Shown piece after piece: positions 3,059 through 57,620 of a stretch of DNA of 64,000 nt (its first letter is position 1; every line of letters begins with the position of its first letter). Origin of the DNA: an uncultured Bacilli bacterium (GTDB lineage Bacteria; Bacillota_I; Bacilli_A; RF39; UBA660). The stretch lies in assembly GCA_934167825.1 (NCBI GenBank), contig CAKPLY010000001.1:70850-134849 (forward strand), given 5' to 3'. The position numbers and the translations under genes are program-made. The notes under the pieces were generated by a model. That model had not been told where the DNA came from. It ran no database searches and saw only the letters and a list, made by a program, of their open reading frames with translations.

Positions 3059-3877
3059 ATGAAAAATTATTTTAAAGAGGAAGAAGTGATTTACTTTAAT
3101 GAGTATATAAAAGATAAACTTAAGACTATAACTACATATATTTATATGCTCGAGTGTAATGACATTAATACTAGTAATATTCGTAGTGCTTTAGGAATAG
3201 AGTTAATGAAATATGCAAGTAGTATAAGTACGCAAGTAGATTGTAAAAGCTTTATCTTGGGATATTTGAATTATATAAGTGATATTAGAGATTATAATGT
3301 TATAAAGTTTGTTAATTATTTTAGTCCTAGAGTTGATTTGATAGTTAGAAATTTTATTATAAGTGATATATTATGTGATACTAAACTTAAGTGTAGTGAA
3401 AAAATTAATATATCTTTAAGTGCTAGTATTTATTTACATAACTTATATGTAAATATAGACAAATACTTTAATGATGATAATAAAATAGATATATTTAATG
3501 ATTTAAAGAGTGATTTAGAGATAACTTTACTAGAACTTATAGAAAATAATGATTATAGTAATATAATTGGTAAGATAAAAGAAAATAATTTCTTGCTTTT
3601 AAAAGAAAAGTTAGAATATAGTTATTTAAATTATGATATACAGGGTTTTTTAAAGATATTAGATAGTGAAGAGATAAGTATATATATTGATACTGTTTTA
3701 AGTGATATTATTGGTAATAATAAAAATATAGATAATATAAGTGTTAAAGAGGTATCTAATACTTTAAATGAAGGGGTAATATCTAGTTATTTTAAATTAA
3801 GAAGTTTAAGAAGTAAAGCAGTAAGTTATAGTAATACTGTTAAGGGTAATGTAAGAAAAAAGGTTAGAACTTATTAG
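3059..3877 (+). CDS. hypothetical protein
   Basis: 272-aa ORF with GGAGGA 5 nt upstream of the ATG. Asn/Ile/Lys-rich. No family recognised. Confidence 0.5.
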   Translation: MKNYFKEEEVIYFNEYIKDKLKTITTYIYMLECNDINTSNIRSALGIELMKYASSISTQVDCKSFILGYLNYISDIRDYNVIKFVNYFSPRVDLIVRNFIISDILCDTKLKCSEKINISLSASIYLHNLYVNIDKYFNDDNKIDIFNDLKSDLEITLLELIENNDYSNIIGKIKENNFLLLKEKLEYSYLNYDIQGFLKILDSEEISIYIDTVLSDIIGNNKNIDNISVKEVSNTLNEGVISSYFKLRSLRSKAVSYSNTVKGNVRKKVRTY

Positions 3878-3909
3878 GTTTATGAACGGATAAAGATTAA
3901 TTGTGATAG

Positions 3910-3959
3910 GATAAATAGTGATATGAAAAGATTATTTTGTATTAAGATAATCTTTTTTT
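3910..3959 (+). repeat. copy 1 of a ~50-nt direct repeat, ending in a terminator-like hairpin
   Basis: GATAAATAGTGATATGAAAAG core identical to 4024-4044. AAGATTAT (3928-3935) pairs with ATAATCTT (3947-3954) and is followed by a T-run. Confidence 0.6.
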
Positions 3960-4023
3960 ACTTATATGAGTAGGTAAGAATTGTTTGAGTGAGATAAATT
4001 AGTATATGATTAAATAAACTGAA

Positions 4024-4075
4024 GATAAATAGTGATATGAAAAGGTTATTTTATACTAATTTAGTCTTTTTTTTT
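4024..4075 (+). repeat. copy 2 of the ~50-nt direct repeat (hairpin degenerate)
   Basis: The 21-nt core is identical to 3910-3930. The following ~30 nt are similar and end in T9, but the stem of copy 1 is not conserved. Confidence 0.55.
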
Positions 4076-4144
4076 CAAAAATATATACAAAATAAAAAAA
4101 ATATTGTATAATTAAGTTGTATTACTTTAGGAGAGTTGGGTATC

Positions 4145-5401
4145 ATGAAAAAAATATATTCTAGTATAGATATAGGCTCTGATACAATTAAGTTCGTAGT
4201 TTGTGAACATTTTAATAAGAATGTAAATGTTTTAGCAAGTTTAGAAGTTAAATCAAAGGGAATAAGAAAGGGACTAATTGTAGATGAAGCATTGTTAGTT
4301 AATGCTATTAAAGATGGCGTTAAGTCTATTAATGAGATGTTATCATTTGATTTAAAGAAAGTTATTGTTAATATAAGTAGTTATAATGTTAAGTTTATGT
4401 ATGTAACTGGTGAGGTTAGTATAGATAATGAGGATAATATAATAACTAAAGATGATGTAGAAAAAGTATTTTCTTCTTCAGTATACAATAAGTTACCAAG
4501 TGATTATGAACTTGTTAATGTTATGCCAGTATCTTTTGTATTAGATGATGATAAGAATGAGATGTACCCGGTTGGTAAAGTAAGTAAGAAATTACAATTA
4601 AAAGGTATTATGATTATTGCTCCGAAGGAGAATATTAATACTGTTATTAGTGCAATGGATAAGGCAGGACTTGAGGTAGTAGATATAGTAATACCAGCAT
4701 TAGCAGACTTTTATGAGGTAAGAAATAATAATATTTGTGATAAAGTTGGTGCAATAATTAATATAGGACATGAGACTACTACTGTATCTATTGTTAATAA
4801 TTCTTTAGTTGTAGCTACAGATGTATTAAAGTTAGGTAGTATCAATATAGATAAAGATTTAGCATATGTATTTGGAATAAGTGTATTTGATGGTAGAACT
4901 ATAAAGGAAAGATTTGCTAGTTCTAGTAAGAGATTTTCTAGTACCACTGAAGTATATGAAGTTAAAAATACTGTTGGAGAAACCTTAAAACTTAATCAAT
5001 TAGAGGTAAGCGAGGTAGTATCTACTAGGATGGAAGAGATACTAAAGTACGCAAAAAATAAGATGTTAGAATTATCTAAGAAAAATATAGACTATATAGT
5101 TATTACTGGTGGTGCTACAGAAATTAAATCATTTAAACAATTAGTATTTGAATTTTTAGGAAAAGATGTTATAATATACACTGAAGGAACATTAGGAGTA
5201 AGGAATAATAAGTATATTACATCACTTGGAATGATAAAATACTTTATAGAGAAGTTAAAAGTAAGAGATAGTAATTATTCTATGATAACTAATGAGGAAG
5301 AGAGTTTACTAATTAACCCTAATTTAAAGAAAAAGGAATTTATGAAGAAAGGAAGACTTTTTGGAAGTTTTATTGCAAGTAAGGAGGAAGAAAATGAATA
5401 A
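4145..5401 (+). CDS. ftsA: cell division protein FtsA
   Basis: N-terminal [16 protein letters not shown] actin-fold phosphate-1 motif, ITGGATEIK near the C-terminus, and position directly upstream of ftsZ. ATG 4145 is preferred over the TTG at 4136 because the AGGAG lies 11 nt upstream. Confidence 0.9.
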
Positions 5402-6485
5402 TATGTTTGGACTTGAAATGGATCAATTAGCAAGAATAAAAGTTATAGGTGTTGGGGGCGGAGGATGTAATGCGATTAACAGAATGATAGAGTCTGGCTT
5501 AAAAGGTGTTGATTTTATCGTTGCTAATACTGACTTACAAATCCTTAATACGTCTCTTGCACCTGTAAAACTTCAAATAGGTAGTGAACTTACTGATGGA
5601 CTTGGTGCTGGTGCCAATCCGGAAATAGGAAGAGAAGCTGCATTAGAAAGCAAAGCAGAAATAGAAGAAGCACTTAAGGGTGCTGATATGGTGTTCGTAA
5701 CTTGTGGTATGGGTGGAGGAACAGGTACTGGAGCAAGTCCTGTTATTGCAGAAATTGCCCAAGATCTTGGAGCACTTACAGTTGGTATTGTTACTAAACC
5801 ATTTAGTTTTGAAGGCAAAAAAAGAATGGAACAAGCTACTGCTGGACTTGAGGAATTAAAAAAACACGTAGATACATTAATTGTAATACCTAATGATAGA
5901 TTAAGAGAATTAATAGATAAATCTACACCAATGCTTGAAGCATTTAGAGAAGTAGATAATGTACTTCATCGTGGTGTACAATCAATTTCAGATTTAATTG
6001 CTGTTGCAGGACTAGTTAACCTAGATTTTGCAGATGTTAAAGCTGTTATGAAAGATAGAGGTAATGCTTTAATTGGTATTGGAGTAGGTAGTGGATCTGA
6101 TAGAGCAGCAGAAGCTGCAAGACAAGCAGTATCTTCACCACTTTTAGAAACATCAATTAATGGTGCTACTGATGCTATAATTAATGTTACTGGTGGGTCT
6201 AATCTTACATTATTTGAAGTAGAAGAGGCTGCAGAAATTATTAGAACTGCTGCTAATACTGATATTAATACAATCTTTGGAGCAGTAATTAATGAAAATT
6301 TGAATGATGAAGTAATAGTAACAGTAATTGCTACTGGTTTTGAGCAACCAAGTGAACCATTATATCATAATTTTAATAATAATACTCGTGAAGAAATGTA
6401 TAAAGAAGCAAGAAAGAATAATGATTTTGATATAGATAACGACTTAGATATTCCACCATTCTTAAGAGATAAAGATGAATATTAA
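5394..6485 (+). CDS. ftsZ: cell division GTPase FtsZ
   Basis: [17 protein letters not shown] and the tubulin signature [15 protein letters not shown]. Start moved to ATG 5394 (AAGGAGG upstream). The ORF-track start at 5361 is a TTG inside ftsA. Confidence 0.97.
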
Positions 6486-6490
6486 TAATA

Positions 6491-6522
6491 AATATGATGC
6501 AAAATAAACATCATATTTTTAA
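6491..6522 (+). terminator. rho-independent terminator after ftsZ
   Basis: AATATGATG (6491-6499) pairs with CATCATATT (6509-6517) and is followed by a T-run. Confidence 0.7.
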
Positions 6523-6612
6523 AATTTTAGATATATAGTTATGAAATTGTATTTAATATACATTTATAAGTATAAAAGTAGTTAATATAAGAATAATTTA
6601 GAGGTGAAGTAA

Positions 6613-7407
6613 ATGGATAAGATAATTGAAGCAAAGATATATTTACCAATAATATATATTGTAATTGGTTTTGTTTTATATTATTTATTAAAGAAAATAA
6701 ATGATAAGTTAAGTAAGAAGATAGTTATTAATAAGACAGGTAGTGATAAGAGAAAGAATACTATTATATCTCTTATTAATAATATTATTAAATATATAAT
6801 AGCAATAGTTATTGTACTTGCTATATTAAAGGTATATGGAGTAGATACTACTAGTATTTTAGCATCTTTAGGAATAATAGCAGTAGTAATTGGACTTGCT
6901 TTTCAAGATATTGTAAAAGATATGTTATCAGGTATTTCTATTATATTTGATAATTTATATGCTGTTGGAGATACTATTAAGATTGGAGATTTTACTGGGG
7001 AAGTTATTTCTATAGGAATTAAAAATACTAAGATAAAGTCTTGTTATGGTGAGATTAAAAGTATTTCTAATAGTCAAGTTACGGAAGTTATAAATTATAG
7101 TTTATATGATAGAACATTATTTATACCCGTTAATGTAAGTTATGATACTGATATTGAGAAGTTAGAGAAAGTACTTAATGAGGTTAAGGAAGAGATTAAG
7201 ACTGAAGATGGAGTAAAGAGTGAACTAGAGTTACTTGGAATAGATAGTTTAAATGATAGTGGTATTACATATATGGTAACACTTACTTGTAAGTATAGTA
7301 ATTCTTTTAGAATAAAAAGAAGATTACTAGGGTTAATTAAAAGTAAATTAGTTGAAAACAAGATAGAAATTCCATATAATAAACTAGATGTAAATGTAAG
7401 GAAGTAA
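6613..7407 (+). CDS. small-conductance mechanosensitive channel (MscS family)
   Basis: Three N-terminal TM helices, then VGDTIKIGDFTGEVISIGIKNTKIK, the MscS beta-domain pattern. Confidence 0.8.
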   Translation: MDKIIEAKIYLPIIYIVIGFVLYYLLKKINDKLSKKIVINKTGSDKRKNTIISLINNIIKYIIAIVIVLAILKVYGVDTTSILASLGIIAVVIGLAFQDIVKDMLSGISIIFDNLYAVGDTIKIGDFTGEVISIGIKNTKIKSCYGEIKSISNSQVTEVINYSLYDRTLFIPVNVSYDTDIEKLEKVLNEVKEEIKTEDGVKSELELLGIDSLNDSGITYMVTLTCKYSNSFRIKRRLLGLIKSKLVENKIEIPYNKLDVNVRK

Positions 7408-7412
7408 TAGAC

Positions 7413-7988
7413 ATGATGAAAAAAGAGATTTTTAAAAGAGAATTAGAGTATATTAGCGATGAAGGTATAAGAGAATCTACTGGTATTATGTTAGATTTAT
7501 TACCAGACTATTTCTATCAAATACCTGCTTCTTCGACAGGAAAGTATCACCCTAGGTTTGCAAGTACTGAATCAGGGTTAGTAAAACATACTAAAGTAGC
7601 GGTTAGAATTGCTAAGGAATTATTAGATAATCCTAGTTTAACTAATTTTACTTTAAGAGAAAAAGATTTAATTATTATGTCTATTATTTTACATGATGGA
7701 CTTAAGAATGGATTAGTAAAGGACAAATATACAAAGATAGATCATCCATTATTAGTATCAAACTACATAAAACAAAATAGTGATAAGTTAAAACTTACTA
7801 AGGAAGATTTAGAAATAGTAACAAAGGGTATATCATCACATATGGGTCCATGGAATAAGGATTATGATGGCAATATAGTACTTCCTACTCCTAAGACTAA
7901 GACAGAAAGATTTATCCATATGTGTGATTATTTATCTAGTAAGAAGTTCTTAGATGTAGAATTTGATAATTTAGATATAAAGTATTAG
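7413..7988 (+). CDS. HD-domain phosphohydrolase
   Basis: KYHP...VKHTK...ILHDGLK...SHMG is a histidine/aspartate pattern typical of HD superfamily proteins. Confidence 0.65.
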   Translation: MMKKEIFKRELEYISDEGIRESTGIMLDLLPDYFYQIPASSTGKYHPRFASTESGLVKHTKVAVRIAKELLDNPSLTNFTLREKDLIIMSIILHDGLKNGLVKDKYTKIDHPLLVSNYIKQNSDKLKLTKEDLEIVTKGISSHMGPWNKDYDGNIVLPTPKTKTERFIHMCDYLSSKKFLDVEFDNLDIKY

Positions 7989-7995
7989 ATTTTGG

Positions 7996-8024
7996 TTGAA
8001 AAAAGATAAATTATATGGTATTAT
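7996..8024 (+). promoter_or_regulatory. sigmaA-type extended -10 promoter of the 8223 surface-protein locus
   Basis: TTGAAA (7996-8001), 17-nt spacer ending in TGG, TATTAT (8019-8024). The architecture and the 14-nt ATATGGTATTATTT are shared with the promoter of the 58079 paralog. Confidence 0.65.
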
Positions 8025-8058
8025 TTATTTAGATAGAGATATGGAAGGAGGCCCCAAC

Positions 8059-8124
8059 ATGAATAGAATAAGTTTAGTTATTTATAACATTTATGCTATC
8101 GGGGGGGGGGCAATTAACATATAG
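8059..8124 (+). promoter_or_regulatory. candidate 21-codon leader mini-ORF containing a G10 tract
   Basis: GGAAGGAGG lies 7 nt upstream of ATG 8059. It encodes MNRISLVIYNIYAIGGGAINI with stop TAG at 8122-8124. An in-frame ATG also exists at 8041. Confidence 0.3.
8101..8110. repeat. homopolymeric G10 tract
   Basis: Ten consecutive G read directly from the sequence, flanked by C on both sides. Highly atypical for this AT-rich window. Confidence 0.95.
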
Positions 8125-8148
8125 AAATAATATAATAAAAGAAGGTAA

Positions 8149-8200
8149 AACTATAGATAAAATGTCTAGAAATAGATAGTTTTTGTCTATAGTTTTTTTG
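8149..8200 (+). terminator. terminator/attenuator hairpin just upstream of the 8223 gene's SD
   Basis: AACTATAGA (8149-8157) pairs with TCTATAGTT (8186-8194). There is an inner TCTA-GAAA-TAGA mini-hairpin, then a T-run to 8199. AAAGGAG and ATG 8223 follow. Confidence 0.55.
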
Positions 8201-8222
8201 TTGTCTAAAGGAGTTAGAAGTT

Positions 8223-10139
8223 ATGGAAAATGTAGAAGTAAATAATAAGAGTAAAATAGTAAAACTAATGATAATAGTAATTATCTTAATAGTAATAGCA
8301 TTAGTAGGAACTTATGCTTTAACTATATGGAGGAGTCAAGAAAACACAGAACTTACTTTACGTATTGGGGATATCTCAGGAATATATTGTGAAACAGGAG
8401 ATCCAGTTAATATAAGTAATCTAGGGCCTATATTTGATTATGAAATAGATGGTGAAGTAATAACTTTTAGTATAGATAATCAAACTAATGAAGTAGTAAA
8501 AACTTCTGCTACATTTAATATTACTACAATAACAGATAATTTAAAAGAAGAAAGTTTTAAATATAAATTACTTTATAGTACAAATAATACTACTTATGAA
8601 TTATTAAAAGAAGGTAATTTTAAAGATGTTACAAATGGTAGTAAAATAGAATTATTAGAAAACTATGATGTTGCTATATCACAAAAAATACATTTTAAAT
8701 TAATAATCTATATAGATGGTAATATGGAAAATCCTATAACTATGCAAGGAGGTAGTTTGGTGGGATATCTTACTGCATGTAAAATTGTTGAAGTAGATAA
8801 AAGTGGTGCTAATGCACCTGCTTTAACAGATGCATTAATCCCTGTAATGTATGATGAAACAACATCTACTTGGGTAAAAGCAGATTCAAGTAATAATGAT
8901 TTATCCTGGTATAATTATGGTGAAAAGAAATGGGCAAATGCAGTGTTAGTATCATCAACAAATCGTAGTACTTACCAGTCCGCAAGTGCAGGTACAACTA
9001 TAACAGATGCAGACATCTTAGCATTTTATGTATGGATACCGAGATATAAATATAAAGTATGGAATATAAACAAAGTAATGGCTACAGATAGTTATAGTGC
9101 ACAAACTACAGGTATAGATATAGTATTTGAAGCAGGTACATCTTCAACTGGTACAATATCTTGTACATATAGTTATGCTGCACCATCAAGTACTGCCGGA
9201 AGTCCCAATGAAACATGTACAGGTAGTAATGGAGATTATTATACACATCCAGCATTTACGTTTGGTAATCAAGAACTAACAGGATTTTGGATGGGAAAAT
9301 TTGAACTATCAAGTAGTAATCCTGCGACTGGTTCATCTTATGGCGGGGGATACTCTACATCTTTAACACCAAGAATACTACCAAATGTAACATCATGGAG
9401 AAATAATATAGTATCAAACTATTGGAAAGTAATATATGATATGCAAACAAGTAATAATATATATGGACTTCCTACATCAAGAACAAATGCTGATTCACAT
9501 ATGCTTACTAATATGGAGTGGGGAGCAGTAGCATATTTAACTAACTCAAAATATGGAAGATGTACAAATGGAAGTTGTACAGAAGTATCAATTAATGGTT
9601 ACGGAGAAACAAGTAATTATACAACTATGACAGGATGTGGTCCAATATCAAGTGGTAGTACAAGTTATAGTACTACATGTAACGCATATAATACAACTTT
9701 AGGACAAACAGCATCTACTACAGGTAATATATATGGAATATATGATATGTCAGGAGGGGCAACTGAATATGTAATGGGTAATATATCAAAAACAAACGGA
9801 ACAACATATACATATTATGCAGGAAATGCAGGAACAAACTTTACATATAGTACAGATACTGCAAAATATCTAATACCTTATGCATATGGAACAACATATA
9901 ATGACCAAACAGCATATAATAGAGGAAGATTAGGAGATGCAACAAGTGAAGTAGTATCTAGAGCAAGTTATGGATGGTATAATGACTACACGTCTTTTCC
10001 TGTCTTTGGCGATTCTTGGTTTCTTCGTGGCGGCAATTTCGGCGCTAGTAGTGAAGGTGAACCCTTCTCTTTCTTCGGCAATTCTGGCATTAATAACCAC
10101 TCTTGTTCGGGGCGTGCTGCTCTTTCTATTGCATCCTAA
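8223..10139 (+). CDS. N-terminally anchored surface protein with an FGE-sulfatase/C-type-lectin-like C-terminal domain and a compositionally aberrant C-terminal patch
   Basis: N-terminal TM helix. Motifs THPAFTF..ELTGFWMGKFELS, NMEWGAVAYL, GIYDMSGGATEYVMGN and FLRGGNF...GRAAL resemble the FGE/SUMF1 fold. It is a paralog of 51428..54073, sharing ILAFYVWIPRYKYKVWN and TSRTNADSHM.TNMEWGAVAYLTNSKYGRC. Confidence 0.8.
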   Translation: MENVEVNNKSKIVKLMIIVIILIVIALVGTYALTIWRSQENTELTLRIGDISGIYCETGDPVNISNLGPIFDYEIDGEVITFSIDNQTNEVVKTSATFNITTITDNLKEESFKYKLLYSTNNTTYELLKEGNFKDVTNGSKIELLENYDVAISQKIHFKLIIYIDGNMENPITMQGGSLVGYLTACKIVEVDKSGANAPALTDALIPVMYDETTSTWVKADSSNNDLSWYNYGEKKWANAVLVSSTNRSTYQSASAGTTITDADILAFYVWIPRYKYKVWNINKVMATDSYSAQTTGIDIVFEAGTSSTGTISCTYSYAAPSSTAGSPNETCTGSNGDYYTHPAFTFGNQELTGFWMGKFELSSSNPATGSSYGGGYSTSLTPRILPNVTSWRNNIVSNYWKVIYDMQTSNNIYGLPTSRTNADSHMLTNMEWGAVAYLTNSKYGRCTNGSCTEVSINGYGETSNYTTMTGCGPISSGSTSYSTTCNAYNTTLGQTASTTGNIYGIYDMSGGATEYVMGNISKTNGTTYTYYAGNAGTNFTYSTDTAKYLIPYAYGTTYNDQTAYNRGRLGDATSEVVSRASYGWYNDYTSFPVFGDSWFLRGGNFGASSEGEPFSFFGNSGINNHSCSGRAALSIAS

Positions 10140-10160
10140 ACACAATAAATAGAAATAAAT

Positions 10161-10222
10161 AGATATGTAAATTACTTTTATGAAATAATTTATTAAAAGT
10201 AATTTACATATCTTTATTTTTT
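10161..10222 (+). terminator. strong rho-independent terminator
   Basis: 20-bp perfect stem AGATATGTAAATTACTTTTA (10161-10180) / TAAAAGTAATTTACATATCT (10194-10213), followed by a T-rich run. Confidence 0.85.
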
Positions 10223-10251
10223 TGATATAATTTAGTTAATGATAGAAAGAT

Positions 10252-10569
10252 ATGGAGGATATGATGAGTGATATTGAATTACTAAGTATAGATATTGGTG
10301 CACTAGAAAGTGCTATAGATAGTCTAAATAGATATATTGGTGAATTAAGTACTGAAGAGGGTAGTTTAGAATATATTAAGAATACTGCTCCTACATTTTG
10401 GAATGAAGGTGCTACTGAAGATATTAATTCATATTGTATAGAACTTGGAAAAAATATAAGTAGTGTTGATGCTCTTATACAGAATTTACAAGGATATATA
10501 AGTACTTTAAGAACACTAATTGCTGAAATTAATGAAGCAAGAAAAAGAAAGTATGCTGGTGAGGTGTAA
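10252..10569 (+). CDS. small alpha-helical protein with a central FWNEG motif (possible WXG100/ESAT-6-like)
   Basis: About 100 aa and predicted all-helical. FWNEGATEDINSY is paralogous to FWNEGVGEDVSSY in the 10907 gene. The true start may be ATG 10261 or 10264, after GGAGGA. Confidence 0.6.
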   Translation: MEDMMSDIELLSIDIGALESAIDSLNRYIGELSTEEGSLEYIKNTAPTFWNEGATEDINSYCIELGKNISSVDALIQNLQGYISTLRTLIAEINEARKRKYAGEV

Positions 10570-10571
10570 TA

Positions 10572-10907
10572 ATGCAAGTAAAAGTTAGATTAAACGATTT
10601 AAGACAAACTAGTAATAGAGCAAATGAATTAAATGTTGAAGTTAAGAGTTTATTTGATAGAACTACAAATAATTTAAAAGAAATTTGTCGTATTGTACAA
10701 TGTAGTGAACTAACTAGTGCAACAAATAGTATTAATGAAGAAATTGAAACTATTAATAATGAAATAAATGAATCTTTAAGAGAAATAAATAATTTCTTGA
10801 TTGAGCAAATTAATTACTATAGTATATCTAATGAAAATGCTACTAGTGCAATAAATAAATTAAGTGAGCAAATTACTAATAGTTTTAGTACGGGAGGTGG
10901 CAATTAA
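10572..10907 (+). CDS. small alpha-helical protein, partner of the WxxG pair
   Basis: GGTGAGGTG SD. 111 aa, Asn/Glu/Ile-rich heptad-like sequence with no Trp motif. Tightly packed between the two paralogs. Confidence 0.55.
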   Translation: MQVKVRLNDLRQTSNRANELNVEVKSLFDRTTNNLKEICRIVQCSELTSATNSINEEIETINNEINESLREINNFLIEQINYYSISNENATSAINKLSEQITNSFSTGGGN

Positions 10908-11365
10908 TGGCAACTTATGGTAGAGAACAATTAATTAAATTAAACCCTGAAAGATTAGAGGAATATACTGCTAATTTAGCAACTTTAGTACAACAATTGT
11001 GTGCAAGAGCAGATGAATTAAAAACTGTAAATAAGACTGCTCAAATGTTTTGGAATGAAGGTGTTGGGGAAGACGTTTCAAGTTATGGAGTATCTTTGGA
11101 TAAAAACATTAATTTAATTAAAGGGAAGTTATCAGATACATTAAATGATTATGTTAAAACAATGAATGTACTTGCTTCAACAGTTAGAAATATTGCTGGT
11201 CAAAATGTTGCTACTGGTGGAACAACAACTTCTTTAGGAGGTACTAAACCTTCTTCTCAAATAGATGAACTTAATAATTTTTATTCATCATTTCGCCAAT
11301 TTGATTCTAATACTACAAATAAATATAGAAATCCTAATGTTTTTGGATCTACTGGAAAAATGTAA
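10907..11365 (+). CDS. small alpha-helical FWNEG-motif protein with a Gly/Thr/Ser-rich C-terminal tail
   Basis: Its start overlaps the previous stop (TAATG) and GGGAGGTGG serves as SD. The helical N-terminal ~95 aa are paralogous to the 10252 gene. Confidence 0.6.
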   Translation: MATYGREQLIKLNPERLEEYTANLATLVQQLCARADELKTVNKTAQMFWNEGVGEDVSSYGVSLDKNINLIKGKLSDTLNDYVKTMNVLASTVRNIAGQNVATGGTTTSLGGTKPSSQIDELNNFYSSFRQFDSNTTNKYRNPNVFGSTGKM

Positions 11366-11517: not shown

Positions 11518-12609
11518 ATGTTTAAAAAAGTATGTAAAGTGATGGTAGTATTTTTGTCTTGTTTATTTATGAATGAGGTTAAGGCAGATGAGTGGACTAC
11601 TAAGGAATTAGAAGGAGATGCTGTTATTAAAGAAATTAGATATAGATATTATTATCTAGTTAAGAATGGAGAATATAAAAGAGTGGATGAAATGGGTAAT
11701 TATTCTTATAGTGATAAGAATGATATTAAATATGGAGAGTTTAGTAGTTGGACAAATAGTCCTATAACAGAGTATGATTATTTAGATATAGAGTATGGTA
11801 AGAAATATGAATATCAAGAGTTATTACCTGCGCAATATATTAAGATAGAGAATGTAACTGATAGTAATATAAGTATTAATGATATAGAAACATATAATTT
11901 AAGTGTAAAGTTAAATCATAAGATATATTCTTGCACTTTATGTAATAGTGATAAGAATATTATATATCCAAATGGTAATATGATTATATATATGCCTATG
12001 AGTGTACTTATTAAGAATCTAACTTTTAATTTTACTAATGATTCAAATAGTAATTTTGAGATTTATTATAGTTTTGATAGAGCGTTTAATAAGATAGTTG
12101 CATCCACTTTAGGAAATAATACGGTATTTTCTTATAAATATAATAAGGCATATAAGCTATATGAAAACTATTCAAATACATTTGTTGGATATAATATTAA
12201 TGTTGATGAATTTATTAAGGTAATATCTGTTAGTGATGTATGTAGAGCAAGAGAAATATATGATTATAAATATAATTTAGATAAGGTGTATTTTGGTACA
12301 ACATATTATAAAGATAAGAGTGATATTGATGTTAGTACTACTGATTTATCTATTGATGATTTATATATGGATGAAAACGATTATCAAATATATTATAAGT
12401 ATTCAAGTGATGTAGGAAGCGGTGATAATAAGAATAATAATGATAATAATACACCAAGTAATATAATACCAATAAATAGTCCTAGTTTAGTTAAGACTGG
12501 TAATTTTAAACTCAAGAATACTAATTATTTAATTACATATATATTGCTATTATTACTGGTTACTTTGCTATTCATAAAGAGAATGAATAAAAAGAGAAAT
12601 TTTAAATAA
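11518..12609 (+). CDS. secreted, probably sortase-anchored cell-wall protein
   Basis: Signal peptide MFKKVCKVMVVFLSCLFMNEVKA. C-terminal PSLVKTG (an LPXTG-like variant) followed by a hydrophobic stretch and a KRMNKKRNFK tail. Confidence 0.7.
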   Translation: MFKKVCKVMVVFLSCLFMNEVKADEWTTKELEGDAVIKEIRYRYYYLVKNGEYKRVDEMGNYSYSDKNDIKYGEFSSWTNSPITEYDYLDIEYGKKYEYQELLPAQYIKIENVTDSNISINDIETYNLSVKLNHKIYSCTLCNSDKNIIYPNGNMIIYMPMSVLIKNLTFNFTNDSNSNFEIYYSFDRAFNKIVASTLGNNTVFSYKYNKAYKLYENYSNTFVGYNINVDEFIKVISVSDVCRAREIYDYKYNLDKVYFGTTYYKDKSDIDVSTTDLSIDDLYMDENDYQIYYKYSSDVGSGDNKNNNDNNTPSNIIPINSPSLVKTGNFKLKNTNYLITYILLLLLVTLLFIKRMNKKRNFK

Positions 12610-13010: not shown

Positions 13011-13673
13011 ATGGACGAATTATCTAATATTATAATAGAGAATGAACCTTTAATATATTCTATTATTAATAAGTACTCAAGATACTATGATACAGAAGAT
13101 CTATACCAAGTAGCAGTAATGGGAATAATTAAAGCATATAAGAATTATAAACAAGACTTTAATACAAAGTTTACTTCTTATGCGTATAATTATATCTTAG
13201 GAGAGATATTAAAGTATATTAATGATAGTAAGATATTTAAAATAGGTAAAGAAACAAGGGGATTATATAAGAAGATAAATGAAGCAAAAACTATACTAAC
13301 ACAAAAACTAATGAAAGAACCATCTAACTATGAATTATCATTATTTTTAGAGATTGATGAGAAAGTAATTAATGATGTAATTAATATTAATAGTCCTATT
13401 GATAGTTTGGATAGAGAAATAAAAGAAGAGGGTAAAAAACTTATGTTATATGATGTAGTGGGAGAAAATAAGGATAATATTGAGGAGATATTTTTACATG
13501 ATGAGATAAATAAATTATCATTAGAAGAACTTAAGATACTTAAAGAAAGATACTTTAATGATAAAACACAGAGTGAAGTTGCTAAAGAACTTGGTATAAA
13601 TCAAGTTAAAGTATCTCGTGAAGAACAAAAAATTCTTAAAAAATTATCAAATTCTTACCAAAAAGTCGTATAA
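13011..13673 (+). CDS. group-3 sigma-70 family sigma factor (SigF/SigG-like)
   Basis: Region 2 DLYQVAVMGIIKAYKNY and FTSYAYNYILGEI, with a region 4 HTH TQSEVAKELGINQVKVSREE. Synteny with spoVA downstream matches the B. subtilis spoIIA-spoVA arrangement. Confidence 0.85.
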   Translation: MDELSNIIIENEPLIYSIINKYSRYYDTEDLYQVAVMGIIKAYKNYKQDFNTKFTSYAYNYILGEILKYINDSKIFKIGKETRGLYKKINEAKTILTQKLMKEPSNYELSLFLEIDEKVINDVININSPIDSLDREIKEEGKKLMLYDVVGENKDNIEEIFLHDEINKLSLEELKILKERYFNDKTQSEVAKELGINQVKVSREEQKILKKLSNSYQKVV

Positions 13674-13755: not shown

Positions 13756-14049
13756 ATGGGTTGTAAGGTTAGACATTATGATGTATATGAGACAATATCA
13801 AGAAATATCAAGAAGTATAGAATACTTGCAAATATAACACAAGAAGAACTAGCGGAGAAAGCAAATTATTCATATCAATTCATAAGAAGAATAGAGGCAT
13901 CTAAGACAAAGAAGACGTTTTCTTTAGATACACTTATAACACTTACACATGCACTTAATGTTGATATTGTTGATCTATTCGAAGAGGTGAGTGACGAAGA
14001 ATTTATAGAACTAAAAAGTTCAAAAATTAAAAAACAAAAGAGTATGTAG
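13756..14049 (+). CDS. XRE-family helix-turn-helix regulator
   Basis: ITQEELAEKANYSYQFIRRIE HTH_3 pattern. ATG 13756 is preferred (AGGTGA SD) over the GTG at 13747. Confidence 0.75.
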   Translation: MGCKVRHYDVYETISRNIKKYRILANITQEELAEKANYSYQFIRRIEASKTKKTFSLDTLITLTHALNVDIVDLFEEVSDEEFIELKSSKIKKQKSM

Positions 14050-14052
14050 TGT

Positions 14053-14079
14053 AAAAAGCACAAAACATTGTGCTTTTTT
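14053..14079 (+). terminator. rho-independent terminator
   Basis: AAAAAGCACA...TGTGCTTTTTT hairpin with a T-run. Confidence 0.75.
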
Positions 14080-14124
14080 GTATAATGTTTTAAAAGTTGT
14101 TAATTATATAAATGGTGAAATAAA

Positions 14125-14568
14125 ATGAAGAATGAAATTTATGAGAGTATTGTGGGTGAGGTAACCCCTAAAAAGCATGTACTAAAAAATGCGATAGTTA
14201 CTTTTGTTTTTGGAGGATTAATTGGACTTTTTAGCGAAGCGTTACTTAGAGTATATAAGATGATATTTGATCTTCCTAGAAAAGAAAGTGGAGTTCTTGT
14301 TATAATGACTTTAATATTTATAGCGTCACTTCTTACAGCGTTTGGTGTATTTGATTTATTAGTTGCTAAACTTAAATGTGCCTTAATAATACCTATAACA
14401 GGATTTGCTCATTCTATTACAAGTTCTGCCTTAGACTACAAAAATGAGGGATTAGTATTAGGAATAGGTGCAAATATATTTAAGTTAGCAGGTACTGTTA
14501 TACTTTATGGTGTGGTAAGTGTGTATATATTTGGTATTATTAGATTACTTATTGGAGGCATATTATGA
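14125..14568 (+). CDS. spoVAC: stage V sporulation protein AC
   Basis: 147-aa four-TM protein with size and position matching SpoVAC. Translationally coupled to spoVAD. Confidence 0.85.
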   Translation: MKNEIYESIVGEVTPKKHVLKNAIVTFVFGGLIGLFSEALLRVYKMIFDLPRKESGVLVIMTLIFIASLLTAFGVFDLLVAKLKCALIIPITGFAHSITSSALDYKNEGLVLGIGANIFKLAGTVILYGVVSVYIFGIIRLLIGGIL

Positions 14569-18140: not shown

Positions 18141-18268
18141 CTAAAAAAGCGGCGATTCCGGCCAACCTAAACAGGAACCTAAAAAAGCGGCGATTCCGGC
18201 CAACCTAAACAAGGAACCTAAAAAAGCGGCGATTCCGGCCAACCTAAACAGGAACCTAAAAAAGTGAC
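18141..18268 (+). ncRNA. ToxI/antiQ-like type III antitoxin RNA: 3 full tandem repeats (38, 39 and 38 nt) plus a 13-nt partial repeat
   Basis: CTAAAAAAGCGGCGATTCCGGCCAACCTAAACA(A)GGAAC at 18141-18178, 18179-18217 and 18218-18255. A partial CTAAAAAAG begins at 18256. The repeats are head-to-tail with no spacers and sit directly upstream of a ToxN/AbiQ homolog. Confidence 0.8.
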
Positions 18269-18393: not shown

Positions 18394-18906
18394 ATGACAG
18401 AATTGTTGACACTAGTTAAGTTAGATACAGATTATTGTAATTATTTGAGAAAATTTGATAACAAAGTACCATATAACTATAATAAAAAAGAATTAAGGCC
18501 ATTTGTTGGTGTTTTATTTGAGGTTAATAATTATAAGTATTTTGCACCTTTATCTAGTCCAAAATCTAAACATCTTAAACTAGAATCTAAAATTGACCTT
18601 TTAAAAATAGATGATGGTAGATTGGGAGTTGTTAATTTTAATAATATGTTACCTGTTACTGATGATAATGTTATTTTTATTGACTTAGATAAAAAGTGCT
18701 TAACTGAAACAGAAAAAAAGTATATGAAATTATTAAAAAAACAACTTTTTTGGTTAAGACGTAATGATGTTAAAATATATGAAAGAGCTAAAAAATTGTA
18801 TTTTAAATACACAAATGGTACTCTAAAACAAAACATTGTTAAAAGATGTTGCAATTTTAAACTACTTGAAGAAAAGTGTAATGAATATAATAATATTTTA
18901 GTATAA
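18394..18906 (+). CDS. type III toxin-antitoxin system toxin, ToxN/AbiQ family endoribonuclease
   Basis: 170 aa. YCNYLRKFDNKVPYN...RPFVGVLFEVNNYKYFAPLSSPKSKH...CNFKLLEEKC closely follows the AbiQ/ToxN N- and C-terminal patterns I remember. Confidence 0.85.
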   Translation: MTELLTLVKLDTDYCNYLRKFDNKVPYNYNKKELRPFVGVLFEVNNYKYFAPLSSPKSKHLKLESKIDLLKIDDGRLGVVNFNNMLPVTDDNVIFIDLDKKCLTETEKKYMKLLKKQLFWLRRNDVKIYERAKKLYFKYTNGTLKQNIVKRCCNFKLLEEKCNEYNNILV

Positions 18907-51427: not shown

Positions 51428-54073
51428 TTATGAGGCAACTGTGAGTACGGCGCGGGTTGAAAATAAACTTGGAGGGAATTGCTGTCCTTGCATATAGCCG
51501 TTACTGAAATGTGTAAAAAAGATTCCAGCACTTGCTCCATTTCTGATTGCTCCCCCACGATTAAACCAAATTGAACTAACATATACATTATCTCCGTTCC
51601 ATCCGGTTTCAGTAGATAACACTACTTCACTTGTTGCATCTCCTAATCTTGCTCTATTATATGCTGTTTGATCATTAGTTGTTGTTCCATATGCATATGT
51701 TGTTATATATTTTGCAGTATCTGTACTATATGTAAAATTAGATCCTGCAGCTGCAGCGTAATAAGTATATGTTGTGCTTTTCTTGCTTGATGCATTTCCC
51801 ATTGTATGCTCATGAGCACCGCCTGACATATCGTATACTCCCGTAATATTACCTGTAGTAGATGCAAGTGCTCCTTTAGCGCCGTTATATTTATTTGCTG
51901 CAGTTGTGCATGTTGTACTAGAAGAACTATCTGCTTCAGCATCCGCGCCTATTCCTGTTGTAAAGAAACTGCAATTATTTATTGTTACTTCTGTACAGCT
52001 TCCATCTGTACATCTTCCATATTTAGAGTTAGTTAGATATGCTACTGCTCCCCACTCCATATTTGTTATCATATGAGAGTCAGCATTTGTTCTTGATGTT
52101 GATAGTCCATATATATTATTACTTGCTTGCATACCATATATTACTTTCCAAAAGTTAGATGCAGGATTTGCTCTCCAGCTTGTTACATTAGGTATTATTC
52201 TTGGTGTTAGTGATGTACTATTTCCTCCACCACTTGTAGTTGATGGTGAAGAACTTGATAATTCAAACTTACCCATCCAAAAACCTTTTAGTTCTTGGTC
52301 GCCAAAAGTAAATGCTGGGTGTGTATAATATCTTGTGCTAGAAGAGTCTGTACAGTTTTCTGCAAGTTCGTTTGCTAAGTTAATTCCTCCTGCAGAAGTA
52401 TCAACATTAAAGTTATATGTACAACTTATTGTACCAGTTGATGATGTATCATCTTCAAAAACTATATCTATTCCTGCTGTTTTAGCATCATATGTAGAGT
52501 TTCCTATTTGTTTACTCATATTCCATACTTTATATTTAAATCTTGGTATCCATACATAGAATGCTAAGATATCAGCATTTGCTATAGTTGTTCCTGCAGT
52601 AGAACTAGAATAAATTGCTCTTGAATTAGTTGTAGCTTTACCTGAAGCAAAATTATAATAAAGTTTTAGATTATCACATACTATACCACTACCACATACT
52701 GAAGTATTTGTTACACTATAATTACTTGCTACTTCTGCAGCAGTTAAAGCATCATTATATACTATAAATCTTTTTATTGTTCCACCAAAATTACCAGAAC
52801 CAGTTGGTCTTTTACCAATAAATGAAGAAGTAGATGATCCCCAAGTCCAATAGTTTACTGAAGAACTTGCAGATAATTTTTTTCCATTTAAATAGACATC
52901 TAAATCACTAAAACTACGATATACGATATCTACAGTATAAGTTGTATTTATAGATAGTCCACTTCCTCCTACTAAGAAAGTTTTAGGTTGTGCTTCTCCA
53001 TTACCTCCTGCTACAATAAATTCTGTAGCATTGTTATATATACCAAGAGCTGCTTTGGTATGGTAATCTCCAAAAATTACTTGATTTTCTTTTGAAGTTG
53101 TAGTAAATGTTACTGAGTATGTTGCTGGGAATGTTGCTCCAATATTTGAAGGTAGTTCTACATAAGTACTTGCATCATTTGTAATATTTAAACTGCCTGA
53201 AGAAATTGTTGTACCTACTAGTTTTCCAATATTGTTGTTTCCTGATAAGTCATTTGCATATGTAGTACCTTCACTTACTAATACTGCATTTGCCCATTTC
53301 TTTTGGTTATAGTCATACCAACCGTAAGTAGATGTAGAACTTGTAATATCTGCTTTTACCCAGTTAGAACCATTATATACTACTGGTATTAATCCATCTG
53401 TTAAAACTGGATAGTTTGCTCCACTATTATCTATTTTTTCAGTATATCTTGACATAGTATCACTTGCTTCAGCACTTATTAAAGTAGATATAAGTTCTCC
53501 AGATATTGGATTAGAGCCATCTACTGCGCTTGAATCTAACCATATGTATACTTTGTAATATGTTTGATAAGGGTTTAGTTCTATATTTGTAACTAAAGAA
53601 AATACATCATTTATTTGTCTATCTTTAAAGTTACCTTCTGCTAGTAGGGTTTCAGTAGTATTAGTAGCAGTATAAGTAGTTATTGCCCACTTAACTGTTT
53701 CACATTTAGCAATATTAGCATTATTAGTACTAGTACCATCTTTAGTTTGTAAATCTAATATTTTCATAGATAACTGACCATATATAGTTTTAGTTACTGT
53801 TGCTTTTTTCCAAAATTCTATAGTGGTACTTATACCTGAAGTATAATTATCTCCAAGAGTTAATGTTACATTATCTGTAGATAATATTGGATTACCATGA
53901 TTATATATTATTAATCCATCTAATCCTTTACTAATAGTTAAATTAACATTAGTGTTATCATCATTACTATTCCATAAATAAAATGCGTATGATATACTAA
54001 GTGCTAAAAGAATAAATCCTATTACTCCTAAAATAGTACCATATATTTTTCTTTTCTCTAAATTTTTAAACAT
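51428..54073 (-). CDS. N-terminally anchored surface protein: paralog of 8223..10139 with an inserted LamG/concanavalin-like domain and its own aberrant C-terminal patch
   Basis: Shares the N-domain, DNSGANYPVLTDGLIPVVY...KKWANAVLVS, ILAFYVWIPRFKYKVWN, YYTHPAFTFGDQELKGFWMGKFELSSS, NMEWGAVAYLTNSKYGRC, GVYDMSGGAHEHTMGN and NRGG...TRAVL. The ~200-aa insert ends in GGTIKRFIVYNDALTAAEVASNY, a LamG_3-like pattern. Confidence 0.8.
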   Translation of the reverse strand: MFKNLEKRKIYGTILGVIGFILLALSISYAFYLWNSNDDNTNVNLTISKGLDGLIIYNHGNPILSTDNVTLTLGDNYTSGISTTIEFWKKATVTKTIYGQLSMKILDLQTKDGTSTNNANIAKCETVKWAITTYTATNTTETLLAEGNFKDRQINDVFSLVTNIELNPYQTYYKVYIWLDSSAVDGSNPISGELISTLISAEASDTMSRYTEKIDNSGANYPVLTDGLIPVVYNGSNWVKADITSSTSTYGWYDYNQKKWANAVLVSEGTTYANDLSGNNNIGKLVGTTISSGSLNITNDASTYVELPSNIGATFPATYSVTFTTTSKENQVIFGDYHTKAALGIYNNATEFIVAGGNGEAQPKTFLVGGSGLSINTTYTVDIVYRSFSDLDVYLNGKKLSASSSVNYWTWGSSTSSFIGKRPTGSGNFGGTIKRFIVYNDALTAAEVASNYSVTNTSVCGSGIVCDNLKLYYNFASGKATTNSRAIYSSSTAGTTIANADILAFYVWIPRFKYKVWNMSKQIGNSTYDAKTAGIDIVFEDDTSSTGTISCTYNFNVDTSAGGINLANELAENCTDSSSTRYYTHPAFTFGDQELKGFWMGKFELSSSSPSTTSGGGNSTSLTPRIIPNVTSWRANPASNFWKVIYGMQASNNIYGLSTSRTNADSHMITNMEWGAVAYLTNSKYGRCTDGSCTEVTINNCSFFTTGIGADAEADSSSSTTCTTAANKYNGAKGALASTTGNITGVYDMSGGAHEHTMGNASSKKSTTYTYYAAAAGSNFTYSTDTAKYITTYAYGTTTNDQTAYNRARLGDATSEVVLSTETGWNGDNVYVSSIWFNRGGAIRNGASAGIFFTHFSNGYMQGQQFPPSLFSTRAVLTVAS

Positions 54074-54176
54074 AAATAATCACCCTACTTATATCTTAAT
54101 ATCTAAATATTACTTTATCATAAATTGAGAGAAAAGTAAATAATTTTAATACTTCTTTTTAGATTATTTTTTATAT

Positions 54177-55967: not shown

Positions 55968-57038
55968 TTACATAGATACAGTATATGGATCATCAAATGT
56001 ACCTTCTCCTCCAGTTACTAGGACATTAGATTTTAGATAGAAGGTTGGACGGATGGTGTGGCAAAAACGCACGGTGTTGCTACTGACATACCCATCGGTA
56101 TAGACGTTGAAGGCACTATTGGTACTAGATCGTGGTGTTATTGTCCATTCATATCCTTTATATAACCAGTTTTTATTTACGTAATATTGTGATGATGCTG
56201 TAGTTGTTGCGGTATCTGCAAAGTAACTACTAGCATATAGATAATCTGATACGTACATTAATCCAACATTTGCAGTTGTAGTAGAATCATACGCTCCACT
56301 ATTAGCACTCATACAGTTTGTGGTATCTGTACTTAATCCTCTTTCACACAAGTAAAAATTTTGTTTGCTATATCCATTTCCACTGTATCCTTTTAGATAC
56401 CACGTTACTTCTTCGATATAGTTTCTATATGTATCATTTATTCCGTATCCTACAATATCACTGCAAGAAAATGTTTTGTAATCGTTATTGTTAAAGTAAT
56501 ATGTCCAGTTACTACATGCACCATAAGTGGAAGAAGTATTAGTTTTATTATAGAAGTATTCATTTAATATAACATTTGCACTTGCTTTTACTCCAGTTGT
56601 ATTTCCTGTCCAGTCGTTTTTATAACTAGAGTATGTACCTGAAGAGTTTGTAGAGTTATACACTCCCCAAGAACCAGAGTATAATACTCTACTTCTAATT
56701 AGTTTAACTAGATATTCTCCAGTTTTACCATGACTATTAGAATCAAATACTCCAATTATTCTATATAATTCATTATTAAATAGAACATAGTTACTTGGAT
56801 CTGCTCCACGATATCTATAATCGTGGTATTTAGTAGTACTATCAGTGTCAGTATAACTATTAGTTTTACATACTCCTGTTCCTCCAGCATTACATGCTGA
56901 AGATGTTTCTAAACTAATTACTTTATCTGCTAGAGTTGTACTTACTGCATATGTTTGGTTAATAATTTTAGGTATAATGATCGCAAGTATTCCTAATATT
57001 ACAATAGATATAGATATAATAGTAATTTTCTTATTCAT
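55968..57038 (-). CDS. anchored surface protein, short paralog of 58079..59692, with a DUF1566-like hypervariable C-terminal patch
   Basis: N-terminal TM helix. About 300 aa are near-identical to the C-terminal part of the 537-aa paralog, except for 56052-56132. ATG 57038 is preferred over 57047. Confidence 0.75.
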   Translation of the reverse strand: MNKKITIISISIVILGILAIIIPKIINQTYAVSTTLADKVISLETSSACNAGGTGVCKTNSYTDTDSTTKYHDYRYRGADPSNYVLFNNELYRIIGVFDSNSHGKTGEYLVKLIRSRVLYSGSWGVYNSTNSSGTYSSYKNDWTGNTTGVKASANVILNEYFYNKTNTSSTYGACSNWTYYFNNNDYKTFSCSDIVGYGINDTYRNYIEEVTWYLKGYSGNGYSKQNFYLCERGLSTDTTNCMSANSGAYDSTTTANVGLMYVSDYLYASSYFADTATTTASSQYYVNKNWLYKGYEWTITPRSSTNSAFNVYTDGYVSSNTVRFCHTIRPTFYLKSNVLVTGGEGTFDDPYTVSM

Positions 57039-57269
57039 TTTCAACATTCCTTCTTTCTTTAATTAATATATTATCAAGAATATTATTTAACTTATCTTTT
57101 AAATAATATTCTTCATACTTATTATCTTCATATTCTTTTTTTATTACCTCTAAATTATCTAAAATAATATAATTAATATGTAATTTTTTTAGTGTATTTA
57201 TTTTCTTTTTATTCTTAACATTTTACTTACTTCGTCATTATATATTTTTAATATCTTCCCATTTATAGA

Positions 57270-57620
57270 TTATTCACTGGATTTCATCCAGTCCTCAATC
57301 ATTTTTATTATTTCCGCGAGGCGTTTTGAATAATTATGTAATTTTTTTTCTGTTATATATTTTTTAGTGTAAGCACGTTCTAATAGAAAATCTATTATAC
57401 TTAATCTTGCAATTATTTGTGTTTGTACTGCTTTTTTATCTTTTTCATTAGCTGTTAAGGTTGCGGTGTACACAAGTAGCAATACATTTATTTCACATTC
57501 TTTAAAATATTCACGATTGAAAAGGTCCTTTTCCGGTACATTTTCAAATAATTTTTCACTATCTAATATAAATTTCTTTATACAAGATATTATTTTAAAC
57601 TTATCTTCATTGTAATTCAT
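57270..57620 (-). CDS. four-helix-bundle protein (23S rRNA IVS protein / DGR Avd-like family)
   Basis: 116 aa. NVPEKDLFNREYFKECEINVLLLVYTA....KK...Q.IIARLSIIDFLLERAYTKKYITEKKLHNYSKRLAEIIKMIEDWMKS follows the Avd/TIGR02436-type pattern I remember (..P..EK..L...i......ll.....A ... l..L ... kyIs...y..l...l.EI.KMi.gW). Confidence 0.6.
   Translation of the reverse strand: MNYNEDKFKIISCIKKFILDSEKLFENVPEKDLFNREYFKECEINVLLLVYTATLTANEKDKKAVQTQIIARLSIIDFLLERAYTKKYITEKKLHNYSKRLAEIIKMIEDWMKSSE

Follow-up and report, generated by a model that had tools for sequence, protein, structure and literature searches.

What makes the last 150 nt of one gene in a very AT-rich bacterial genome so poor in adenine? 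The question is raised by a 64,000-nt stretch of contig CAKPLY010000001.1 from an uncultured Bacilli bacterium (hereafter the window), in which an earlier note, made from the letters alone, had pointed to positions 9984-10136, the 3′ end of a gene for a putative surface protein (the target gene), and read them as a current or former variable region (VR) of a diversity-generating retroelement (DGR). The patch is very likely DGR-derived, and we put the probability that positions 9988-10121 are a VR written by DGR mutagenic retrohoming at about 0.85. Comparison with the template repeat (TR) of a close relative supports the earlier reading, and the evidence leans towards "former". Our searches of the genome itself for a reverse transcriptase (RT), a TR and the structured element described below cover the 64-kb window.

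An adenine-poor patch at the end of a surface-protein gene

Base counts over 9984-10136 gave 14.4% A, 25.5% C, 22.9% G and 37.3% T (48% G+C), close to the 13% A estimated earlier by hand; the whole window has 33.6% A and 26.6% G+C. The 150-nt stretch with the least A anywhere in the 64 kb lies at 9983-10132 (A 0.14), and that with the highest G+C lies at 9971-10120 (0.48). Coding-strand A was also scanned in 1479 segments of 150 nt from 50 open reading frames (ORFs), with a mean of 0.408 and a standard deviation (sd) of 0.057. The two lowest values (0.18 and 0.22) both fall in the tail of the target gene, about 4 sd under the mean, which bears out the earlier impression of a coding strand that is A-rich elsewhere.

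Codon endings change as well. Third-position C reaches 33% in the patch versus 3.9% in the remainder of the target gene, and third-position A falls to 5.9% versus 47%. NNC codons number 17 among the last 51 codons and likewise 17 among the last 58, the latter being the figure estimated before. The parent ORF exists as described and contains the peptide motifs quoted for it. Two extra ORFs do overlap the patch, at 9970..10152 (+) and 9930..10145 (-); they are a by-product of A-depletion, because stop codons on either strand need an A on the + strand.

Template repeats in related loci

We screened 79 related metagenome loci (designated L and a number) for RT motifs and for repeat pairs with adenine-biased mismatches; loci around RT homologues went through the same pair screen or were inspected directly. 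Four bona fide DGRs were found among the screened loci (L081, L095, L015 and L100). Compared codon by codon with nine paralogous or orthologous VRs, the patch shows change concentrated at positions 1-2 of NNY codons. The DNA of L001, L010 and L011 differs almost only on positions 1-2 of NNT and NNC codons, and for this reason we predicted an AAY-rich TR. The TR of L100, called TR_A, agrees with the prediction: 14 of its 50 codons are AAY, A stands in third position in 0 of the 50, and its core is TTCAACTTCAACAACAATTCTGGCACTAGTAACAACAAT. A protein search with the predicted TR peptide returned zero candidates, and an exact-pattern scan of contigs with TGGTTTNNTCGTGGCGGCNNTTTC returned only chance matches in GC-rich genomes; this pattern was too narrow, orthologues having CGC and not CGT.

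The differences between VR and TR fall largely on adenines. An ungapped 135-nt alignment of window positions 9987-10121 with TR_A, which is the TR of a close relative and not the cognate TR of the window genome, contains 38 mismatches, 22 of them at TR adenines, although A makes up 26% of the TR (binomial test, p=3e-5). When ten VRs were pooled and their sites sorted by adenine or non-adenine in the TR, 183 of 350 adenine cells (52%) were changed versus 94 of 1000 non-adenine cells (9%; Fisher test, p=8e-59). The TR/VR pairs of L081 and L095, which sit in the C-terminal region homologous to the window VR, have 12/12 and 19/22 of their mismatches at adenines. Because the mismatches are A-biased both in the window VR and in the pooled VRs, we read the patch as a DGR-written VR. 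Its A-poverty is what replaced AAY adenines and TR invariant codons free of A leave behind. The matching TR that the earlier note had expected was thus recovered from a close relative, but none was found in the 64-kb window.

The proposed course of events is as follows. In a GC-rich TR, adenine-free codons would specify the scaffold residues of a C-terminal ligand-binding tip of the formylglycine-generating enzyme (FGE)-type C-type lectin (CLec) kind, and AAY-type codons the residues that vary. An error-prone RT, together with bAvd and a MutS-like protein, would copy the TR RNA with its adenines randomised, and the resulting cDNA would replace the VR. The outcome would be an A-poor, G+C-rich patch of NNY codons inside a 27% G+C genome. 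The call made from composition was upheld: in a very AT-rich genome a DGR VR is recognisable from raw composition alone, its signature being low A, NNY codons and zero stop codons across six reading frames.

Table 1. Features of the window and of DGR loci in relatives (coordinates of each L locus are its own; IMH, initiation of mutagenic homing)
Feature	Position	Strand	Basis or remarks
Target gene ("family A"), 638 aa	8223..10139	+	ORF list; N-terminal membrane anchor, beta-sandwich region, C-terminal FGE-type CLec-like domain
FGE-type CLec-like domain carrying the VR	about 9237-10136	+	part of the 638-aa protein
VR	9988..10121	+	homologous to relatives' TR; 14% A, 49% G+C, NNY codons
Degenerate IMH-like 3′ end	10107..10139	+	TCGGGGCGTGCTGCTCTTTCTATTGCATCCTAA where TR and intact VRs have TCGGGGCGCGCCGCTTTGCTTGTCTTGCTT; two C>T in GC-rich core
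AT-rich hairpin, 19-bp stem, then T-run	10161..10223	+	ordinary terminator-like; occupies the place of two hairpins and 312-nt element
Paralogue of target (locus 2), 881 aa, Laminin_G_3 insert	51428..54073	-	about 80-95% DNA identity to target up to VR, unrelated beyond
Family-B surface-protein gene	55968-57047	-	VR 56050-56127 (-)
Type-2 RT stub, first ~80 nt, with deletion junction	57197..57279	-	blastn vs L015
bAvd-like gene, intact, 116 aa, "type 2" DGR	57270..57620	-	Pfam bAvd E=1.9e-6; 87% identity to L015 avd
MutS-like accessory gene, pseudogene with stop codons	57610..58077	-	tblastn to L015 MutS-like protein, 77% identity across stops
Family-B surface-protein gene	58079-59692	-	VR 58161-58238 (-)
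L100 (close relative, syntenic with L011): family-A target VR	8335-8484		ends ...SGRAALLVLL*
L100: element, 312 nt	8485-8796
L100: TR_A	8796-8945		then ~360-nt spacer
L100: MutS_I	9308-9664
L100: bAvd	9661-10008
L100: RT (RVT_1)	10001-11026		motifs IGNYTSQYFAN, YMDD; HNH gene next
L081 (distant relative): family-A VR and TR	VR 8148-8282, TR 8484-8618		RT, bAvd and small MutS-like ORF on opposite strand
L095 (more distant relative): family-A target VR and TR	VR 13321-13465, TR 13983-14127		preceded by MutS_I, bAvd, RT

Target gene, family and fold

The target protein has a hydrophobic N-terminal anchor and belongs to a large gut-Firmicute family. A homologue search with it gave 4246, with no informative name among the matches listed. 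Homologue C-termini follow the scaffold GWYNDYAxFPxSSxSWFxRGGxFxxxSxAGPFxFxxxSGxxxxxxSGRAAL, whose hypervariable positions are rich in N, S, Y, D, G and F. No relatives were found in viral contigs, and no positional orthologue of the target gene was found among about 95 fetched loci.

The earlier note had also placed the patch in an FGE-type CLec fold. A family profile built from 19 sequences and searched against the PDB had a sole match, 5vf4_A (E=2.7e-4), aligned over the motifs HPAF..G..WIG.F and H.(M/L)TN.EW.AVA.LT, with the VR region outside the alignment. The matched protein, TaqVP of Thermus aquaticus (PDB 5VF4), is a DGR variable protein of the FGE-type CLec fold whose VR is C-terminal (10.1101/432187). 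Pfam FGE-sulfatase (PF03781) gave weak matches in 5 of 19 distant relatives (best E=8.9e-4), but the window protein itself had zero Pfam matches even at E<=1. Two AlphaFold2 runs reached a predicted local distance difference test score (pLDDT) of 29 and 60, with 45-65 (low confidence) in the C-terminal domain. The model at pLDDT 60 has an N-terminal helix and beta-strands, and Foldseek matches to the models were limited to the N-terminal beta-sandwich. We therefore rejected AlphaFold2 and Foldseek as proof of the fold: confidence was too low and the beta-sandwich alone was matched. Remote sequence evidence makes it plausible that the C-terminal domain is an FGE-type CLec.

These comparisons place the target gene in a large, unannotated surface-protein family of low-GC spore-forming gut Firmicutes, whose ligand-binding tips would be diversified, now or formerly, by MutS-like/Avd/RT DGRs. 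The protein itself is a probable variable adhesin or receptor-binding protein.

On the 5′ side, about 200 nt before the start codon (window 7996-8221, +) are 82-94% identical to regions upstream of family-A genes in L001, L013, L016, L017, L018, L022 and L026, and family-A paralogues appear to share a leader or promoter. Downstream, window 10252-11365 (+) holds three small acidic coiled-coil ORFs of 105, 111 and 152 aa, none with a significant Pfam family; two of them contain an FWNEG..ED..SY repeat (10366-10421 and 11018-11073).

The 3′ end of the variable region and a conserved structured element

Intact VRs (L001, L010, L011, L012, L015 and L100) end in TCGGGGCGCGCCGCTTTGCTTGTCTTGCTT, the same as in the TR, and continue with two hairpins that have GNRA-like loops (GAAA) and with a conserved element. 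The window VR ends in TCGGGGCGTGCTGCTCTTTCTATTGCATCC instead, followed by TAA and an AT-rich terminator. A GC-rich IMH with an inverted repeat is present in those six loci and was not found at the window VR. Its last five codons are of a "native" LSIAS type, likewise in L014 and L028. Neither alignment nor nhmmer found a copy of the element in the window.

The element is a highly conserved noncoding sequence of about 200-312 nt directly 3′ of intact VRs (L100 8485-8796, L010 11916-12177, L011 12523-12825, L012 4657-4947, L001 11879-12071), and in the L100 cassette it lies between VR and TR. It is made up of two hairpins with GNRA loops, a hairpin of invariant sequence (GGAGGCRCTATGYGCC) and a pre-TR box that is conserved. 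The RNA fold z-score is -5.9, and the divergent DGRs of L099 and L095 keep the element, with base changes that compensate each other. Zero Rfam families matched the element or anything in the window. A speculative reading, which we consider unlikely, is that this sequence of about 300 nt is an undescribed cis-element of DGR targeting, part of a portable "VR plus beacon" cassette that turns paralogues into remote targets. If that were true, the window VR would be a cassette without its beacon, which would explain a frozen state.

Two arrangements in relatives concern the same region. A family-A gene of L001 (~12072-12200, compared with L056 474-620) has received an insertion of an LLVLL-type VR together with the element. 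The native C-terminus that this displaced (RGGGFYNGNN...STRSVLTIAT*) is left as a noncoding remnant just 5′ of the ileS T-box leader, and L056 keeps the native end at the same genomic position. We had considered this L001 fragment 3′ of the element (RGGGFYNGNN...LTIAT*) as a TR and rejected it: it has no A-biased partner and, by comparison with L056, is the displaced C-terminus. In L034 (10886-11172) and L091-L094 (e.g. L091 2780-3060), a family-A VR directly abuts an L100-type post-TR spacer, which is followed by the MutS-like gene, avd and RT. A separate TR was not found beside the family-A gene and RT cassette of L034 and L091-94. The L091-94 VR is the same in four independent samples, and that of L034 is very different. 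The arrangement could be a collapsed VR/TR or a self-templating form in which the gene's own 3′ end serves as template.

Frozen orphan, live target or imported segment

The reading of the patch as a DGR target had led to the expectation of a DGR RT, and this was not borne out in the 64-kb window, where neither a motif scan nor tblastn with three DGR RTs found one. Nor does the window hold a post-TR spacer, a TR, or a direct or inverted repeat of the patch, the best ungapped match being 33/60. Its DGR genes are limited to the bAvd gene and MutS-like pseudogene of another cassette. In phage BPP-1 the IMH is essential and a downstream hairpin is needed for efficient homing (PMC3240598; PMC5758913).

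The mismatches that do not fall on adenines point the same way in part. The window VR has 16 of them relative to TR_A. Five of the 16 are common to all four other "variant-2" VRs (L001, L011, L015 and L013) and a sixth to three, so that these six probably represent a TR variant. Most of the other ~10 are C>T or G>A, as one would expect from decay in a genome rich in A+T. Cassette loss is common in the lineage: L011 is without the cassette found at the same site in syntenic L100, and many members of the type-2 RT cluster are truncated. Given the degenerate IMH, the absent hairpins and element, the additional C>T and G>A changes away from adenine sites and the loss of DGR cassettes in the lineage, we judge the window VR to be probably (0.6-0.7) an orphan that is no longer diversified. 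The exact target protein recurs without change on 5 contigs, and its 90% identity cluster holds no other member and no VR variants. Sister clusters show the same VR where divergence is low and an entirely different one once it reaches ~8-10%, which indicates that diversification is episodic.

Several points weigh against a frozen VR. Any decay is slight, given how GC-rich and A-poor the VR still is. The cognate L100 VR itself has 7/28 non-A mismatches, so non-A changes alone are no proof of decay, and since the TR was taken from a relative, a different TR variant may lie behind some of the non-A differences. Neither the cognate TR nor the cognate RT of the window genome was seen; the evidence covers the window and relatives. 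The VR, IMH and element of P0031, a paralogue from the same 199-kb contig, are all intact, so the genome may still contain a type-1 DGR. The VRs of L014 and L028, with native LSIAS/LSIAN ends, keep a GC-rich core, TCGGGKCGY.CCGCT, that might be sufficient as an IMH. Such observations would suit a live remote target, diversified in trans by a type-1 DGR elsewhere in the genome with the core TCGGGGCG.GC.GCT serving as IMH. Remote targets are known for cellular DGRs (PMC5758913), the window VR is still strongly A-depleted, and VRs with LSIAS/LSIAN ends recur in other genomes (L014, L028) with different variable codons. We nevertheless hold a live target to be the less probable state. Two C>T changes lie inside the GC-rich core and the remainder of the 31-nt TR/VR 3′ homology is lost, the hairpin pair and the element are absent downstream, and zero members of the type-1 RT cluster are on the same 199-kb contig as P0031. 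The identical protein on 5 contigs and the VRs that stay static over short evolutionary distances in related clusters likewise speak against it.

A different origin of the hybrid end is also conceivable, though less probable: the VR body may never have homed here, having come instead from a DGR-targeted paralogue through homologous recombination or gene conversion, with its downstream crossover close to TCGGGGCG. This would account for a DGR body joined to a native LSIAS tail and is compatible with an ultimate DGR origin of the patch. C-terminal modules do move between paralogues, as in L001, whose inserted VR and element displaced the native end that L056 keeps. The L015 orthologue of locus 2, the second family-A-like gene of the window, bears a different VR type (an LLVLL-type VR plus element), and the sequence upstream of the patch, SRASYGWYNDYT, is DNA-identical to that of the L015 881-aa protein. 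Set against this, a donor with the same VR sequence was not found, and later tail replacement or mutation could give the same hybrid. A generic compositional cause, be it chance, horizontal acquisition of a GC-rich segment, or an overlapping gene or structured RNA, is highly improbable. In its favour are the G+C maximum of the window, which falls on the patch, and the two spurious overlapping ORFs, but those ORFs follow trivially from A-depletion, zero Rfam families match the window, and the composition is a ~4 sd outlier among coding-strand segments. The patch is, moreover, homologous to TR-templated VRs with A-biased differences, and these TR/VR statistics effectively refute a generic cause.

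A decayed second DGR and a paralogous gene

The state of a second DGR in the window also speaks for a frozen target VR. This DGR lies between two paralogous family-B genes (Table 1) and serves family B, not the target VR. The close relative L015, syntenic with window 51.4-59.4 kb, has a type 2 DGR with MutS-like gene, avd, RT and TR_B (3271-3347), likewise between two family-B genes, and mismatches in its family-B TR/VR pairs fall at adenines in 12/12 and 14/14 cases. By blastn, L015 1-2237 corresponds to window 59402-57197 and 3621-6664 to 57207-54171. The intervening ~1.4 kb, L015 2238-3620, has no counterpart in the window, where a deletion between 57197 and 57207 has removed TR_B, the start of ORF116 and most of the RT. 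Judged by its sequence, the second DGR of the window is dead. We tried the window family-B VRs with L015 TR_B as A-biased pairs and rejected them: 14/32 and 16/31 mismatches are at A (p=0.33 and 0.09), so the A-specific signature has been lost. Taken together, the loci described here document how such systems decay: RT and TR disappear by deletion, VRs stay behind as orphans, and paralogues exchange VR cassettes. Orphan VRs of this kind matter for surveys that count DGR targets only where an RT is nearby.

The DNA similarity between the target gene and the 881-aa paralogue stops at ~9955, just 5′ of the patch; the break therefore coincides with the start of the patch. The C-terminus of the paralogue (51428-51620, -) is WFNRGGAIRNGASAGIFFTHFSNGYMQGQQFPPSLFSTRAVLTVAS, another type than that of the target gene, and its differences from the closest homologue, P0013, are rich in N, S, H, I and R. 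Because of these differences it may be a VR that belongs to a different class of TR. The tail of this locus (51428-51600) was rejected as a TR of the target gene, since the differences are not confined to A. In L015 a two-gene insert (6730-8177; 197 and 284 aa) separates RNase J from the 881-aa gene and is absent at window ~54171-54174; the 284-aa ORF resembles an AbiEii-type protein annotated in L010.

Comparison with known systems

The TvpA DGR of Treponema denticola is close in kind: it is cellular and not phage-borne, it has a C-terminal VR in an FGE-type CLec surface protein, its paralogous targets are scattered on the chromosome, and strains differ in their DGR content (PMC5758913). It differs in having an HRDC accessory gene where the relatives studied here have MutS-like and bAvd genes. 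In the present case the targets are Firmicute proteins that are anchored in the membrane at the N-terminus and contain beta-sandwich, dockerin or Laminin_G modules, and the window copy is without a nearby RT or TR and has a degenerate IMH. With the "Architecture D" DGRs that contain a MutS-like protein (Wu et al., PMC5758913), the relatives share a small MutS_I-like protein, Avd and RT. The order here, however, is target VR, 312-nt structured element, TR, ~360-nt spacer, MutS-like gene, avd and RT (plus HNH in L100), and the host, a spore-forming gut Firmicute, has a genome of 27% G+C.

TaqVP, the sole solved structure matched by the family profile, has an FGE-type CLec fold, plausible for the target protein too, with a C-terminal VR; its sequence similarity is very remote, and the VR region is not in the alignment. 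Mtd of Bordetella phage BPP-1 has in common the A-to-N mutagenesis from a TR and a GC-rich IMH at the VR 3′ end, followed by inverted repeats with GNRA-like loops (PMC3240598). The intact relatives studied here differ in that IMH matches IMH* exactly over 31 nt and a far longer stretch, the conserved structured element, comes after the VR; the window VR has neither hairpins nor a full IMH.

A ToxN-family gene in the window

Well away from these loci, a ToxN-family gene (18394-18906, +; Pfam ToxN_toxin, E=4.6e-48) is preceded on its 5′ side by three tandem repeats of 38-39 nt (18141-18264, +). The repeat region had zero Rfam matches at the gathering threshold. Repeats and gene together have the layout of a putative type III toxin-antitoxin (ToxIN-like) system.

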